From: a virus
Strand: one strand, 5' to 3'
Virus record (IMG/VR): IMGVR_UViG_3300032285_003360
Coordinates: 1 to 64,000 of that record
DNA: 64,000 nt
Position 1 is the stretch's first letter. The number at the start of each line of letters is the position of its first letter. Shown here in pieces: positions 106 to 47,235 of this stretch. The notes beneath the pieces are model-generated. The model saw nothing but the letters and a program-made list of their open reading frames with translations, was not told the DNA's origin and did no database searches. A program made the translations under genes and the position numbers.

Positions 106-411
106 TTAATTTTCAGCACGATATACTACACTATGATCTGTTATAAATGGTGTAACTATACCCATTGATATCCAATATGTTACAGTCATATTAGTATCTC
201 TTCTTGGATATACCTTAACAACAGCACGATATAATTCACCTTGATTATATGTTGTTTCGGTAATTACATAGTCGGCATCTTGAGTTATTACTCTTCGCCC
301 ACTTGTAAATCTTGTTGAAACATAATTAGCCACAATCCTAATTGCCTTTTGAGACCACTCACCATCATATTGAGTTGGTTGGGTTTCTGTGAGGAACTTA
401 AATGTTTTCAT
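106..411 (-). CDS. FKF-tagged small protein (MKTFKFL), close paralog of 6290..6595
   Basis: ORF track; aligns along its whole length with 6290..6595 (YDGEWSQ..AIR..TYWISMG.VTPFITDHS). Confidence 0.85.
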   Translation of the reverse strand: MKTFKFLTETQPTQYDGEWSQKAIRIVANYVSTRFTSGRRVITQDADYVITETTYNQGELYRAVVKVYPRRDTNMTVTYWISMGIVTPFITDHSVVYRAEN

Positions 412-688
412 TTGGTGTAAATGTTAATGTTACGTTTATATATTCTGTTTCTCGTCTTGGTAATAAAAATACTTGATTACCTCTTACTTCATATACATCA
501 GCATAATTATATGCTTCATGATCTCTTGTTATAAGACTTGCTTGAACTATGGTACCATCAGGAGTGTGTACAAAAATCATAGTTCTACGATTGTTTTGGT
601 CTATTGGAGTAACTCCTAAGAACCTGAAATTTGGAACATCGTATTCCTCAGGATTAAAAGGTTTTCTGAAGAACTTAAATGGTCTCAT
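398..688 (-). CDS. FKF-tagged small protein (MRPFKFF)
   Basis: Start reassigned to ATG 688 by analogy with the family; F.F..V.P...H...G.I motif shared with 8339..8569 and the C-terminus of 5310..5834. Confidence 0.75.
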   Translation of the reverse strand: MRPFKFFRKPFNPEEYDVPNFRFLGVTPIDQNNRRTMIFVHTPDGTIVQASLITRDHEAYNYADVYEVRGNQVFLLPRRETEYINVTLTFTPNENI

Positions 689-1019
689 ATAAGGATATAT
701 TTTCTTGAGTGGTAAATTCACAATAATATTCTGTATCAGGAAACTTTACACTATAATCTATCCCTATTCTATTAGGTATATTAAAATATGGTACAATATT
801 ATTTATCTTATAGAAATAAGTTACCCCTTCACCAATTTCGTTTTCTACTCTATACTCTACTGGTGAAAATAATATCATATTCTCCCTGTGTAAACCCACC
901 GCTACTTCCATTATATGTCCATACATATCTAATGGGATGCTGTAGGTTGTATTTGTATCCTTGGTGATTATTAGAATATATTGTATTATTGTCCCCGAAA
1001 AGAATTTAAATGGTTTCAT
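675..1019 (-). CDS. FKF-tagged small protein (MKPFKFF)
   Basis: ATG at 1019 followed by the tag; its stop lies in the FK codons of the next gene. Confidence 0.75.
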   Translation of the reverse strand: MKPFKFFSGTIIQYILIITKDTNTTYSIPLDMYGHIMEVAVGLHRENMILFSPVEYRVENEIGEGVTYFYKINNIVPYFNIPNRIGIDYSVKFPDTEYYCEFTTQENISLYETI

Positions 1020-1485
1020 TATCTCTTGTGTGTAAGTTAACCTCAACAATTATTTGTCTAATGTGATTTATAGTGTCATCGTAACCACTTAATAATATAT
1101 CCTCAATTCTATCCGTTGTTATATAATCATCGAAAGTATATCCCCTACAATCATTGATAGTTGTTATTGCCGTGTATCTTGTGGTTAGATTATTCTCATC
1201 AGTGTATGTGAAATCACCACTGGTTATAATACAAATACTACTTATATCAAATGTTTCATTTCTCCAATTAATAAAATTCTGAATGGATGACGCAATTACC
1301 GCAATATCTCTTAAACCCATAGCCCCATAGAAAGAATTTCTTAGCATATGAAGGGGACTACCAGGAGGATTCATTAATCGAACCGGCACAAGTTCATTAG
1401 TAATAGTTCTACCCGAGACTCTTGTTGCTATTGGTAGACTATATCCATAATGATTATTTTCATGAAAGAATTTAAATGTTTTCAT
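1006..1485 (-). CDS. FKF-tagged protein with gp23 Gol-region-like segment
   Basis: MKTFKFF; LPIATRVSGRTITNELVPVRLMNPPG resembles the gp23 VRR..P.L.A.D...VQPMN.P.G segment. Confidence 0.75.
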   Translation of the reverse strand: MKTFKFFHENNHYGYSLPIATRVSGRTITNELVPVRLMNPPGSPLHMLRNSFYGAMGLRDIAVIASSIQNFINWRNETFDISSICIITSGDFTYTDENNLTTRYTAITTINDCRGYTFDDYITTDRIEDILLSGYDDTINHIRQIIVEVNLHTRDNETI

Positions 1486-1844
1486 TATCTATAAATTACA
1501 TGAACGGTTGGATAAGATACATTAACAATCATCCAATCCCAATTTGTTCTCCATATCTTTACTTTAGCTGAAAACAATGGACAGTTAACACCTATTTTAC
1601 TTTCTATGTTGGGTGTTTCCATTAGTTCACACGTTTTATCTATGGATGGAAGATATATTAAATGCTTGTTAGGGTTTCCATACTCATTTGAAAAATATAA
1701 ATCGCTAAGCCATTCCTTTATAACTTCGGAGAATTCATTGGTCCAACATAAGTTTGACTCATCTGTTCTCTTAATGCGATTCATTATCTCTATTTGAAAT
1801 AATGGTTTTAATTTTTTCTTATCAAAGAATTTAAATGGTATCAT
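1485..1844 (-). CDS. FKF-tagged small protein (MIPFKFF)
   Basis: ATG at 1844; TAATG overlap with the downstream gene. Confidence 0.75.
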   Translation of the reverse strand: MIPFKFFDKKKLKPLFQIEIMNRIKRTDESNLCWTNEFSEVIKEWLSDLYFSNEYGNPNKHLIYLPSIDKTCELMETPNIESKIGVNCPLFSAKVKIWRTNWDWMIVNVSYPTVHVIYR

Positions 1845-45067: not shown

Positions 45068-46320
45068 GTAAACCAACATTATTATTTAGAGGACCAGTAA
45101 AAACAAGAAGCGGCTACGGTGCGCATTCGAGAGACGTTTTAAAAGCATTATATGAAATGGATGTATTTGATATAATGATTGATAGTTGTCCGTGGGGGAA
45201 CACACCTATGACAGCATTAGAAGATAACTTATTCCACAAGTGGATTGAGTCTAACATTGTTACATCATTAACGTCACAACCGGACATCTACATACAAGTT
45301 ACCGTTCCAAATGAATTCCAAAGAGTTGGTAAATTTAACATTGGTATAACTGCAGGTATTGAAACAACTGTCGCTCCTAAAAATTGGATAGATGGTTGTA
45401 ACAAAATGGATTTGATTATTGCTACATCAAGTTTTTCTAAGGATGTTTTATTATCAACTGTTTATAATGAAACGGAAAAGAATACTGGTAAGTTAGTTGG
45501 TCAATATAGAATTGAAAAACCAATTGAAGTTTTGTTTGAAGGTGTTGACCTTAACATTTATAACAATGAATCTACAGGTTTAGATATTGACATCAAAGAA
45601 GATTTTGCTTATCTTTTTGTAGGTCATTGGTTGAAGGGAGATATTGGACAGGATAGAAAAGATGTTGGTATGATGATTAAAGTATTTGCGGAAGCATTTA
45701 AGAATGAAGAAAACAAACCCGCATTGGTATTAAAGACATCAGCTGCGAGCTTTTCAATTAAGGAGAGGGAGAATATGAGAAAAAGAATACAAGACCTTGT
45801 ATCAAGTATTGAAAATCCTCCATCTGTTTATCTTTTGTTCGGTGAATTAACTGATGCTGAAATGAATGATTTATATAACCACCCAAAGATTAAATCAATG
45901 GTATCAATAACTAAAGGTGAAGGATTTGGAAGACCTTTACTTGAATTCTCAATGACAGGTAAACCAATCATCGCATCTAATTGGTCAGGGCATAAAGATT
46001 TTTTACCAATGGATAAAGCGGTTATGGTTGGTGGAAAATTAACTGAGGTTCATGCAAGTGCGATTGATGATTTTATTATTAAAGGTTCTAAATGGTTCAC
46101 AGCTAACTATAATGAATTTGCTGAAGTATTAAAGTTGGTTCAAAAAGATTACGAAAGATTTGTTGAGAAGTCTGAGGAATTAAGAAAAGAAAACGGAGAT
46201 AAGTTTTCATTTGAATCAATGAAGGTTACATTCAAAAATATTATTGAAAAATATAATAAAGTGACGCAAGCACCTGTTCAGACAAAATTAATTCTACCTA
46301 AGTTAACTAAAATAAAATAA
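45064..46320 (+). CDS. Glycosyltransferase family 4
   Basis: SGYG..SR, RK, GEGFGRPLLE....GKPIIA..WSG..DF. Confidence 0.92.
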   Translation: MSKPTLLFRGPVKTRSGYGAHSRDVLKALYEMDVFDIMIDSCPWGNTPMTALEDNLFHKWIESNIVTSLTSQPDIYIQVTVPNEFQRVGKFNIGITAGIETTVAPKNWIDGCNKMDLIIATSSFSKDVLLSTVYNETEKNTGKLVGQYRIEKPIEVLFEGVDLNIYNNESTGLDIDIKEDFAYLFVGHWLKGDIGQDRKDVGMMIKVFAEAFKNEENKPALVLKTSAASFSIKERENMRKRIQDLVSSIENPPSVYLLFGELTDAEMNDLYNHPKIKSMVSITKGEGFGRPLLEFSMTGKPIIASNWSGHKDFLPMDKAVMVGGKLTEVHASAIDDFIIKGSKWFTANYNEFAEVLKLVQKDYERFVEKSEELRKENGDKFSFESMKVTFKNIIEKYNKVTQAPVQTKLILPKLTKIK

Positions 46321-46321
46321 C

Positions 46322-46570
46322 ATGGCAAAGAAAAAGACTCAACCAAAAGTTGAGATGAATATCGAAAAAGTAGTTCAGGAATATATTCCATGTGAATGGG
46401 TGATTCAGTTTGATAATGATGAACCCAAAGTATTTGCATCTTCCGATGTTAATTCATCTTCACATGAAGTGGTTTTTAAAATACCTAACACCAGTGAGTC
46501 GCACGTAACCTTTACTGACCCAATATCAAATAAGCGATTTAGTATATACGCAAGACCAAAAACAAGTTAA
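46322..46570 (+). CDS. Small protein, untagged paralog of 46571..46810
   Basis: QFDNDEPKVFA...F.IYARP vs QFGDEEPVVFA...FKLFARP. Confidence 0.75.
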   Translation: MAKKKTQPKVEMNIEKVVQEYIPCEWVIQFDNDEPKVFASSDVNSSSHEVVFKIPNTSESHVTFTDPISNKRFSIYARPKTS

Positions 46571-46810
46571 ATGGATTTTAAGTTTTTTAAAAGTGAAGAA
46601 TTAATACACGATAACTTTATTATATTACAACCTACAAATTTTGCACCTGAAAATGCTGAATTTTGTTTTCAATTTGGTGATGAGGAACCTGTTGTATTTG
46701 CTAATGGGCCAAATGAATGTCAAATTCGTATAAGTCCAACACCAGGTGGTAGTATGATATTCAATGATAATGGTAAAGTTTTTAAATTATTCGCAAGACC
46801 AAGAGTATGA
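46571..46810 (+). CDS. FKF-tagged small protein (MDFKFF)
   Basis: Tag; paralog of the preceding gene. Confidence 0.8.
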   Translation: MDFKFFKSEELIHDNFIILQPTNFAPENAEFCFQFGDEEPVVFANGPNECQIRISPTPGGSMIFNDNGKVFKLFARPRV

Positions 46811-47235
46811 TGCACAAGTTTAAATTTTTTGAGGGGTTTCTTGAGAACGTATATGTGTTTGACACCGCTAATATTGTTGCGAGACATGTTCAGCATGGTG
46901 AAAGAACTTTACGTGCAACGTGGAGACCTGAACCAATAGAAGATATCTATTCACATCATGGGATAGATGCTGAGGCGGAATTAACAAGAATGCTATCAGC
47001 ACAATGGGCACAAGAGATTGACAATGATATCATTAGACGATTAAGAGAAATCATTGGTGAAGAAAATGAAACCGATGATGAAGTATTAAGAGGTATTGAA
47101 GTTTTAAATGGTAGAGTTGAAGAGAGTGTTGATACAATCAGAAGAGTAACAAGAAGAATAAATGGTGGGGACGATTTAGCAGATAACGCCGACTATCTTG
47201 GTAGATATTTGGATATAGGAGGAGATAGAGCATGA
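46807..47235 (+). CDS. FKF-tagged protein containing a gp23 major-capsid-like fragment
   Basis: MMHKFKFF; RTLRATWRPE...D....HGIDAEAELT..LS.....EID.DI. Confidence 0.85.
   Translation: MMHKFKFFEGFLENVYVFDTANIVARHVQHGERTLRATWRPEPIEDIYSHHGIDAEAELTRMLSAQWAQEIDNDIIRRLREIIGEENETDDEVLRGIEVLNGRVEESVDTIRRVTRRINGGDDLADNADYLGRYLDIGGDRA

Follow-up and report, generated by a model that had tools for sequence, protein, structure and literature searches.

In phage T4, the small internal proteins IPI, IPII and IPIII and the Alt protein are diverse and fast-evolving. Their only common part is a short N-terminal peptide, the capsid-targeting sequence (CTS), which a phage protease removes; the internal proteins are Lys-rich and touch DNA through their lysines (PMC3012670). 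Enzymes of clan CD (metacaspases/orthocaspases, gingipains R and K, separase, clostripain, CHAT) are built on the caspase fold (PMC4357240, PMC6426788) and have strict P1 specificity, mostly for Arg or Lys (PMC4357240). Proteins exposed to ubiquitin or Pup can be selectively depleted of Lys with compensation by Arg ("Lys deserts"), a hypothesis also put forward for mycobacteriophage proteins (PMC13696103), and the low-Lys A chains of ER-translocating toxins show a comparable loss (PMC10665810). Finally, short terminal recognition motifs are used by transpeptidases (OaAEP1/butelase, GPI transamidase, sortases) and by sliding-clamp clients (bacterial QL[SD]LF; T4 gp45-binding tails). We know of no clan CD enzyme that processes dozens of proteins of a phage by way of a common terminal tag.

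The DNA analysed here, a window of 64,000 nt from a contig of 101.8 kb (IMG/VR record IMGVR_UViG_3300032285_003360), is a fragment of the genome, of about 300 kb, of an uncultured T4-type phage. Twenty-four ORFs carry the tag F-[KRQ]-F-[FL] (consensus x-F-K-F-[FL]) at the N-terminus and four at the C-terminus (Table 1), all at the places named in the original prediction. When each protein of the contig is shuffled (153 genes from a crude call; 23 N-terminal copies plus the one at the 1844 start, and 4 C-terminal copies), 0.15 and 0.04 are expected, and the anticipated terminal enrichment is therefore clear; truly internal copies number 2 vs 1.6 expected by shuffling over the contig, that is, background. 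The ORF 1485-1877 has an upstream ATG, and the 1844 start is a choice. As predicted, 19 of the first 20 genes (106-7264) are tagged, the sole exception being 4196-4510. The neighbours of the arrays are genes of DNA metabolism and of early type, and the head module is far away. The residues that follow the tag are variable, here and in relatives (TE, HE, RK, SG, DK, NN, QK, RG and others), and the bodies are mostly acidic.

Table 1. Tagged ORFs and the candidate tag-processing peptidase (positions in the window; G001, G006 and G008 are related phages).
Position	Strand	Tag	Terminal residues	Remarks
106..411	-	N	MKTFKFL...	paralogue of 6290-6595
398..688	-	N	MRPFKFF...	
675..1019	-	N	MKPFKFF...	
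1006..1485	-	N	MKTFKFF...	zero Lys in 152-aa body; G008 orthologue
1485..1844	-	N	MIPFKFF...	alternative ATG upstream at 1877; normal Lys content
1831..2166	-	N	MREFKFF...	
2153..2470	-	N	MNKFKFF...	zero Lys in body
2474..2761	-	N	MNIHPFKFF...	body weakly RMF-like, zero Lys
2742..3110	-	N	MMDFKFF...	
3097..3333	-	N	MIKDFKFL...	zero Lys in body
3330..3710	-	N	MIKAFKFF...	G006 orthologue
3710..4186	-	C	...ESFKFFN-stop	N-terminal hydrophobic anchor; normal Lys content
4510..4977	-	C	...KEFKFLN-stop	N-terminal hydrophobic anchor; normal Lys content
4974..5300	-	N	MKEFKFL...	normal Lys content
5310..5834	-	N	MINRFKFL...	variant F-K-L-L in G006 orthologue
5836..6303	-	N	MKKFRFF...	Arg variant; Lys in G001 and G006 orthologues
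6290..6595	-	N	MKLFKFF...	67% identity with 106-411
6592..6909	-	N	MKSFKFF...	basic, Lys-rich; G001 orthologue
6896..7264	-	N	MKPFKFL...	
8339..8569	-	N	MNNFKFL...	
8574..8903	-	N	MKAFKFL...	G001 orthologue untagged
9170..9355	-	C	...KDFKFLRNE-stop	soluble, 61 aa
13647..14051	-	N	MSGEFKFF...	zero Lys in body
14538..14921	-	N	MTPFQFL...	Gln variant
15166..15609	-	N	MKTFKFF...	hydrophobic C-terminus; orthologues in G006 and G008 tagged, that in G001 not
16603..17148	-			P0001, 181 aa, predicted caspase fold (clan CD-like), invariant His53/Cys92; candidate tag reader/processing peptidase
25649..26062	-	C	...KDFKFFK-stop	hydrophobic N-terminus; tag retained (...DFKFFRG-stop) in the 35%-identical G006 orthologue
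46571..46810	+	N	MDFKFF...	clade's most conserved tagged family; second invariant F-K-[LI]-F near C-terminus (about nt 46781-46792)
46807..47235	+	N	MMHKFKFF...	zero Lys; body includes a piece of this phage's gp23-type capsid protein

Over the 28 tags, the first Phe is encoded by TTT (25) or TTC (3), the second position by AAA (18), AAG (8), AGA (1) or CAA (1), the third by TTT (21) or TTC (7), and the fourth by TTT, TTC, TTA, CTC, CTA or CTT. This synonymous variation, already seen in the original prediction, is real and tracks genome usage (AAG 23%, TTC 27%). No nucleotide conservation exists in the flanks of the 12 nt, and the 28 proteins fall into 25 body families by BLAST, in line with the diversity of bodies claimed earlier. 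Because synonymous sites follow genome usage, flanks are unconserved and bodies are so varied, selection acts at the peptide level: the tag is a short, linear and modular peptide carried by many mostly unrelated payloads. Conservation mainly at the nucleic-acid level, as a translational-coupling or re-initiation signal or as a recombination linker for gene cassettes, is highly improbable. It would account for the 10 of 22 N-tags that span the upstream gene's stop across the Phe and Lys codons (14- or 20-nt overlaps), for a mild TTT bias at the first Phe, for C-terminal copies placed 16-17 nt ahead of the next ATG, and for the extended N-terminal segment that unrelated tagged genes have in common in relatives. 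However, the motif is frame-locked and its C-terminal form persists between 35%-identical orthologues, and the lysine depletion described below would be left unexplained. This reading is largely refuted by the tag codon statistics and the unconserved flanks.

The tagged bodies are poor in lysine, a feature that the original prediction had missed. Their median Lys content is 2.5% vs 8.9% in small proteins that lack the tag (p = 7e-9), and Arg is doubled (7.2% vs 3.5%). At most one Lys is found in 10 of 28 tagged bodies vs none of 50 controls, and six bodies of 70-152 aa hold none at all. AAA and AAG are both depleted in frame, about 3-fold each, and the GC content of tagged genes equals that of untagged genes; the long Lys-free stretches are not explained by composition. 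Four relatives repeat the depletion (p = 1e-10). Lys nevertheless occupies the centre of the tag in 26 of 28 cases, although the bodies favour Arg 2:1, and it reaches 12.5% in the first 5 residues past the tag vs about 2% further on. All four C-tagged and about six N-tagged proteins have a normal Lys content.

The tag is confined to one phage clade. It is kept in orthologues, as the original prediction would have it, and relatives bear arrays of their own; orthologous bodies are found both with and without it, which indicates modular gain and loss. The core idea of a docking tag thus holds, because of the codon statistics, the conservation in orthologues, the gain and loss of the tag and its use at either terminus. 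Of the earlier docking reading, the peptide-level tag, the unrelated payloads and the notion of one partner are supported; for the hub itself there is a candidate.

This candidate, P0001, is an orphan whose gene shares the strand of the array and lies just upstream of it. His53-Gly54 and, after it, Cys92 do not vary across 29 close and 16 distant homologues. In the AF2 model (pLDDT 82), strands 47-55 and 87-92 end at this His/Cys dyad, as in clan CD. All 13 Foldseek matches at E <= 1e-3 are caspases (E 3e-5), and VIA-align, independent of Foldseek, gives Z scores of 10.9 with SAVED-CHAT, 9.0-9.5 with separases, 8.7 with RgpB, 8.6 with metacaspase-4, 8.5 with the legumain-type OaAEP1, 8.3 with C11, 8.2 with Kgp and 7.0 with GPI8. 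P0001 itself has no Pfam or PHROG match and none among PDB sequences; 2 of 16 family members weakly match Pfam Peptidase_C50 (best E 0.0017), and its language-model neighbours are CHAT/DUF6642. The modelled fold of P0001 is alpha/beta of the caspase type, and the dyad lies on loops L3 and L4, which follow consecutive central strands. Acidic residues D10 (L1) and E114/E117 (L5), invariant or nearly so in the family, lie on the S1-specificity loops at the positions of caspase-7 Arg87 and Arg233, and would confer strict P1 peptidase specificity. In contrast to characterised clan CD members, all far larger, P0001 has only 181 aa, belongs to no Pfam family and is devoid of a p10-like subunit and of a prodomain; its peptidase role is predicted.

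Tags occur in 7 of 7 related records that bear P0001, with arrays 4-10 kb from its gene, and in 0 of the 6 that are at least 60% complete and do not bear it; L151 too pairs P0001 with the tag. In the P0001 tree the tag-plus genomes form one clade (100/97), so that co-occurrence and adjacency amount to a single origin with conserved synteny. Residues fixed in this sub-clade do not adjoin the dyad. When loci were fetched with divergent family members, the P0001-family gene stood among tag-less neighbours of normal Lys content in 29 of 30. The family is thus also present in tag-less phages, and its ancestral job must therefore be something else.

The best explanation, tentative but possible, is that P0001 uses the tag as its docking site and cleaves on the C-terminal side of the tag Lys, so that lysines in docked bodies would be selected against. 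P0001 would bind the exposed, strand-forming tag and cleave past its Lys (F-K/F-F), stripping a leader of 4-7 residues from N-tagged proteins or a tail of 2-5 residues from C-tagged ones. While docked, a client would be held near a Lys-specific active site and any accessible Lys of its body would be a liability; in this model, such docking is why Lys is swapped for Arg in tagged proteins only and why Lys survives beside the tag. We infer all three premises: P0001 is an active enzyme, its preferred P1 residue is Lys, and it takes the tag as substrate; its specificity for Lys over Arg is an assumption. The normal Lys content of the C-tagged and of some N-tagged proteins speaks against the model, whose simple form does not predict it. 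So does the model of the one tagged family for which a structure was predicted (pLDDT 73), where the tag may be a strand packed into the protein's own fold. Since the fold matches OaAEP1 and GPI8, transpeptidation offers a parallel: after the cut, the leaving group of a C-tag and the new N-terminus of a cleaved N-tag would both start with F-[FL], as ligases require. However, the 97%-complete relative G001 has N-tags and no C-terminal tag was found in it, and ligation is here an analogy only.

The lysine pattern could also arise if the tag Lys were the acceptor of a covalent modification (ubiquitin-/Pup-like conjugation, acylation or an isopeptide cross-link), the enzyme being the host's or another one of the phage, with Lys-desert bodies keeping the mark on one site or avoiding off-target marking. 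The tag Lys is indeed nearly invariant while the bodies are purged of Lys, leftover Lys clusters beside the tag, and Lys deserts are a known signature of exposure to Lys-directed ubiquitin/Pup systems (PMC13696103). Like Lys-desert proteins, the tagged bodies would have to work with a Lys-directed machine and yet survive it; unlike in those proteins, depletion is tied to a terminal tag that itself keeps Lys, and it occurs in an AT-rich phage with probable Bacteroidota hosts. No E1/ThiF-like or Pup-ligase-like gene was found in G001 or in this contig, and an ATP-grasp-Hint polyprotein, conserved between the two, lies in a fibre/tailoring cluster unconnected with the arrays. To our knowledge, Bacteroidota have no ubiquitin- or Pup-type system, nor is the Pup-proteasome one of theirs. 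We regard such a modification as unlikely. Non-covalent docking on a host hub (a ClpX/ClpA/Lon-type unfoldase, DnaK, the sliding clamp or another), so that a whole class of early proteins would share one fate, for instance degradation at a set time, is quite unlikely. The use of either end, the strand-like aromatic-basic-aromatic pattern and the changeable client set would suit it, and degrons of ClpX and Lon, like motifs that bind the clamp, are typically terminal and hydrophobic-basic. Yet the depletion would need a separate cause, its restriction to tagged proteins being left unexplained, and such hubs are universal whereas the tag is limited to one clade. The clamp option of the original prediction found no support: the family-B polymerase of G001, an expected client, ends in ...DLILHVTEG, which does not resemble the tag, and PF02916 detected no T4-type clamp, both weak negatives. 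Its protease option is the favoured one, as a phage-encoded endopeptidase or processing enzyme and not as a host Clp/Lon degrader.

A tag acting like the T4 CTS had been suggested too; it would bring varied anti-defence proteins into the prohead, to be injected later. The clade head is T4-type (G001 has a gp23-like MCP and an acidic scaffold), small, fast-evolving and otherwise unrelated proteins have an N-terminal leader in common, and one tagged protein (46807..47235) contains a capsid-protein fragment. The T4 prohead protease cuts at the leader end at [LI]-x-E. Past the tag no cleavage site is conserved, here or in relatives, and removal of the leader, a T4 feature, is here only proposed. 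Moreover, the tag is of 4-5 residues and occurs at either terminus, and in three of the four C-tagged proteins the N-terminus is a hydrophobic anchor. The payloads, mostly acidic and Lys-purged, do not match the soluble, basic, DNA-contacting type, and the early-type surroundings of the arrays also count against this reading. T4-style capsid targeting is thus disfavoured, with a slim chance of being right.

The candidate reader, P0001, is new in this analysis. With the phage's own caspase-fold cysteine peptidase as the best candidate, the tag would mark a changing set of small, mostly unrelated and probably early proteins as clients of one Lys-directed enzyme.

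The tetrapeptide F-[KRQ]-F-[FL], hereafter the tag, was found where the original prediction had placed it when each of the named ORFs was checked. In the whole contig, 24 copies are N-terminal, beginning 2-5 codons past the ATG, four are C-terminal, ending 1-3 codons short of the stop, and two are truly internal, whereas shuffling of each protein gives expectations of 0.15, 0.04 and 1.6 copies, respectively. The terminal enrichment is thus confirmed. It also holds that the tag is carried by 19 of the first 20 genes of the window and that the recognisable enzymes and exported proteins of the region (2OG-Fe oxygenase, NlpC/P60 peptidase, methyltransferase, FG-GAP lipoprotein, FeoA) are all devoid of it. 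Stripped of their tags, the 28 proteins fall into 25 BLAST families, in agreement with the diversity of bodies first described; this rules out a single diverged paralogue family as their source. In Pfam and PHROGs, the only matches to the 28 tagged proteins are a Gp23 (capsid-protein) fragment and, weakly, RMF.

Selection acts on the peptide, as had been argued. Synonymous codon choice inside the tag follows genome usage (AAG in 8/26 vs 23% genome-wide), and TTC is used for the second Phe in 7/28 copies vs 27% genome-wide. Position 4 is encoded by TTT, TTC, TTA, CTC, CTA or CTT and, from 45 nt upstream to 21 nt downstream of the tag, no nucleotide column is conserved except the ATG. On these codon statistics, an explanation of the tag at the nucleic acid level was rejected. 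In 10 of the 22 minus-strand N-tagged genes, the stop of the upstream gene spans the Phe|Lys codons of the tag (TTT AAA read as T-TAA); the embedded stops are TAA or TAG and the genes overlap by 14 or 20 nt. This arrangement suggests translational coupling along the array of tagged genes and fits the slight preference for TTT as codon of the first Phe, but it cannot account for the rest of the motif. Many of the upstream proteins concerned end in ...T-I or ...P-I. Proline directly precedes the first Phe in about nine tags.

The parent contig (IMG/VR, viral; 101,769 bp, 32.5% GC), of which the window is the first 64 kb, has a CheckV completeness of 31% and is therefore only part of a roughly 300-kb genome. 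With the thymidylate-synthase-like gene as query, 80 related contigs were recovered; no related locus was matched by the tagged protein 6290-6595, and no cultured phage matched the first 20 kb of the window by megablast. One relative, G001 (323,865 bp, 97% complete), encodes a major capsid protein of the gp23 type together with an acidic scaffold protein, and the nearest cultured phages, although distant, infect Flavobacterium. It follows that the window comes from a T4-type jumbo phage, uncultured and with Bacteroidota as probable hosts. Because of its DNA methylase and glycosyltransferase neighbours, the thymidylate-synthase homologue may not be a plain ThyA but a DNA-modification enzyme of the pyrimidine hydroxymethylase type.

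The tag is clade-wide and modular: orthologues from relatives keep it, and some relatives have arrays of their own. The plus-strand pair starting at 46571 and 46807, adjoining a sugar-modification operon, recurs with its tags in many relatives. Contig G006 has seven consecutive N-tagged genes and one C-tagged gene, G008 has five N-tagged genes and the pair, and tagged arrays are also present in G004 and G007, the complete G001 having only four tagged genes. Some orthologous bodies are tagged in other genomes and untagged in G001, and one orthologue of a tagged protein carries F-K-L-L. The C-terminal copies are not scars, since that of 25649-26062 persists in an orthologue of 35% identity. In the more distant relatives G002, G003 and G018 (the last complete, 159 kb), the tag was not found. 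Finally, two unrelated bodies, in G008 and G006, share an extended N-terminal segment including and following the tag, a sequence pattern which hints that recombination just behind the tag may move leaders between genes.

Features of the window and of related contigs discussed in the text
Position	Strand	Feature	Observations
106 onward	-	Array of tagged genes
398-15609	-	Junctions with stops embedded in tags
1485-1844		N-tagged protein	Normal or high Lys
2474-2761; 3097-3333; 5310-5834		Tagged proteins	Common RGW/QGW...GW pattern
4974-5300; 6896-7264		N-tagged proteins	Normal or high Lys
6592-6909		N-tagged protein	Normal or high Lys, also in G001 orthologue
7268-8322		Untagged genes inside array	2OG-Fe(II) oxygenase (7268-7789; prolyl/lysyl-hydroxylase superfamily) and signal-peptide NlpC/P60 peptidase
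16603-17148	-	P0001, 181 aa	Predicted caspase fold; just upstream of array
18117-18548		Cyclophilin-type peptidyl-prolyl isomerase	Pfam E 3e-43; 1 kb from P0001 gene
39507-40646		Thymidylate-synthase homologue, 379 aa	Spans 266-position Pfam model with large insertions
46322-46570		Untagged paralogue of 46571-46810	Upstream of it
46571-46810	+	Most conserved tagged family	N-terminal FKF[FL]; invariant F-K-[LI]-F-A-R (about 46781-46792) 6-9 residues from C-terminus
46807-47235	+	Tagged protein, 142 aa, zero Lys	Includes part of the major capsid protein of this phage (Pfam Gp23 positions 141-198, E 6e-11; 58% local identity to G001 protein); orthologues in relatives shorter (64-75 aa), tag kept
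G000 (parent contig) 78931-80793		ATP-grasp-Hint polyprotein	Kept in G001; in fibre/tailoring cluster
G008 4919-5350; G006 24715-25230		Unrelated tagged bodies	Common MIKPFK[FL][FL]-x-GY-x-YSDEYT

The three tagged proteins with the RGW/QGW...GW pattern, one of which has a weak Pfam match to ribosome modulation factor (RMF; E 2e-4, below cut-off), may be small ribosome- or nucleic-acid-binding modules. One tagged family, 46571-46810, was modelled: its N-terminal tag and its C-terminal FK[LI]F are both predicted, with moderate confidence, as beta-strands. Such a form would suit strand docking, although the tag may instead have a role inside the fold.

Tagged proteins are purged of lysine. Their bodies have a median of 2.5% Lys vs 8.9% in untagged proteins of 60-180 aa (p = 7e-9), and Arg is doubled (7.2% vs 3.5%, p = 1e-6). 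At most one Lys is present in 10/28 tagged bodies vs 0/50 controls, and six bodies of 70-152 residues have none. The loss is repeated in G001, G005, G006 and G008 (3.1% tagged vs 9.1% untagged, p = 1e-10). In-frame AAA and AAG are each depleted about threefold in tagged genes, of which the GC content equals that of untagged ones; a compositional cause is thus ruled out by the equal GC, the doubled Arg and the depletion of both Lys codons. Lysine makes up 12.5% of the first five residues past the tag, where it is over-represented, and about 2% of those further on, and the tag centre itself is Lys in 26/28 copies, though the bodies prefer Arg. Ordinary Lys contents are seen in all four C-tagged proteins and in about six N-tagged ones; several tagged exceptions are strongly basic (net +6 to +10). 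The escape of this subset is accounted for by none of the models considered below.

A candidate reader of the tag, P0001, was flagged by comparing the complete G001 with tag-plus fragments and with the tag-minus G002, a phylogenetic profile weakened by the 60% completeness of G002, where few of the genes that flank P0001 are present. The protein is encoded on the strand of the array and shows 66-70% identity across the clade. Its sequence is matched by nothing in Pfam, PHROG or PDB, and a PDB search with its profile gave nothing significant; about 2,000 close homologues were found, and the family forms 1,148 clusters at 50% identity. Its sequence predicts the layout of clan CD peptidases, a hydrophobic strand ending in His-Gly followed by a second strand ending in Cys, and His53-Gly54 and Cys92 are invariant in the family down to 40% identity. 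In the AF2 model (pLDDT 82, pTM 0.81), strands 47-55 and 87-92 terminate at these residues. With this model, all 13 Foldseek matches at E <= 1e-3 are caspases. An aligner independent of Foldseek ranks SAVED-CHAT at the top (Z 10.9), then separases (9.0-9.5), gingipain R (8.7), metacaspase-4 (8.6), OaAEP1 (8.5), Bacteroides C11 protease (8.3), Lys-gingipain (8.2), legumain and MALT1. Two divergent family members match Pfam Peptidase_C50 weakly, and CHAT and DUF6642 are language-model neighbours of P0001, as a lead only. Clan CD enzymes depend on a His/Cys dyad and have a strict P1 specificity: most families take Arg or Lys, gingipain K takes Lys alone, and the S1 determinants are found on loops L1, L4 and L5 (PMC4357240). 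The L1/L5 segments of P0001 carry invariant or near-invariant acidic residues (D10, E114, E117) where caspase-7 has Arg87/Arg233; judged from topology, they would fit a basic P1. No residue specific to the tag-plus sub-clade lies near the dyad.

Each of the seven related records that encode P0001 has tags within 4-10 kb of it; the six fairly complete records that lack P0001 have no tags. However, the P0001 tree unites the tag-plus genomes, the separately recovered locus L151 among them, in one clade, so that the association had one origin and its synteny was inherited. Moreover, 29 of 30 P0001-family loci from other clades have no tagged or Lys-poor neighbours, so that P0001 is at best an older enzyme that acquired a set of clients. 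Other candidate readers were set aside: the ATP-grasp-Hint polyprotein for its genomic placement, the 2OG-Fe oxygenase inside the array, which has only distant paralogues elsewhere, and the cyclophilin, common only to G005 among the relatives examined.

We propose that a Lys-directed peptidase, with P0001 as candidate enzyme, would dock on the tag and cut at F-K|F-[FL], because it would explain four observations at once: the invariant tag Lys between aromatic residues, the need of the tag for a free end, the loss of Lys confined to tagged proteins with Arg as replacement, and the persistence of Lys in the linker, a place where further cutting would do no harm. Taken as a whole, this model is tentative: although the likeliest of those weighed here, it is possible rather than probable. 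The composition data are matched just as well by a covalent modification of the tag Lys, from which the lysine deserts would shield the bodies, but neither an E1 nor a Pup ligase was found in the contig or in G001. Reading of the tag by a host degron system or docking hub leaves the loss of Lys unexplained.

Among the hubs first envisaged, a sliding clamp gains no support: the C-terminus of the G001 polymerase does not resemble the tag, and a search for PF02916 had no match, which is a weak negative. Capsid targeting as in T4, the closest described system, fails on three counts: the tag is followed by no cleavage motif, C-terminal copies occur on anchored proteins, and the Lys-poor composition of tagged bodies is opposite to that of T4 internal proteins, which use lysines in their contacts with DNA (PMC3012670). 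The prohead protease PF03420 had no match in the contig, in a search whose positive controls were also unmatched. A bolder and quite improbable version of the peptidase model makes the caspase-fold enzyme a transpeptidase, that is, a phage-encoded protein-ligation system resembling sortases but built on a caspase fold. After the F-K|F-[FL] cut, the upstream part would be held as a thioester and handed on to the F-[FL] N-terminus that cleavage exposes on an N-tagged protein. Soluble payloads would thus be ligated onto C-tagged membrane anchors, the FKFF...FK[LI]F family could also be joined head to tail or circularised, and Lys-free acceptor bodies would keep side-chain amines from competing as nucleophiles.

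A full-text literature search (the motif with phage, phage caspase-like or clan CD enzymes, lysine-free phage proteins) retrieved no description of the tag, nor of the P0001 peptidase family in phages. Signal peptides, degrons, the T4 capsid-targeting sequence and sortase signals all place one address tag on variable payloads, a principle that organises cell and virus biology and has also yielded tools. Here, abundant freshwater jumbo phages use a four-residue tag clade-wide on dozens of fast-changing small proteins, and the purge of Lys from tagged proteins only is a rare proteome-level signature. A concrete candidate reader, from a minimal family of 181-aa proteins with more than 1,000 sequence clusters and without annotation, makes this unexplained pattern testable. 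If the peptidase model is true, it would give the P0001 family its first function, define a phage-encoded caspase-like processing system and a very small pair of tag and protease that might find practical use, and help to show which early proteins the phages of this clade put to use.
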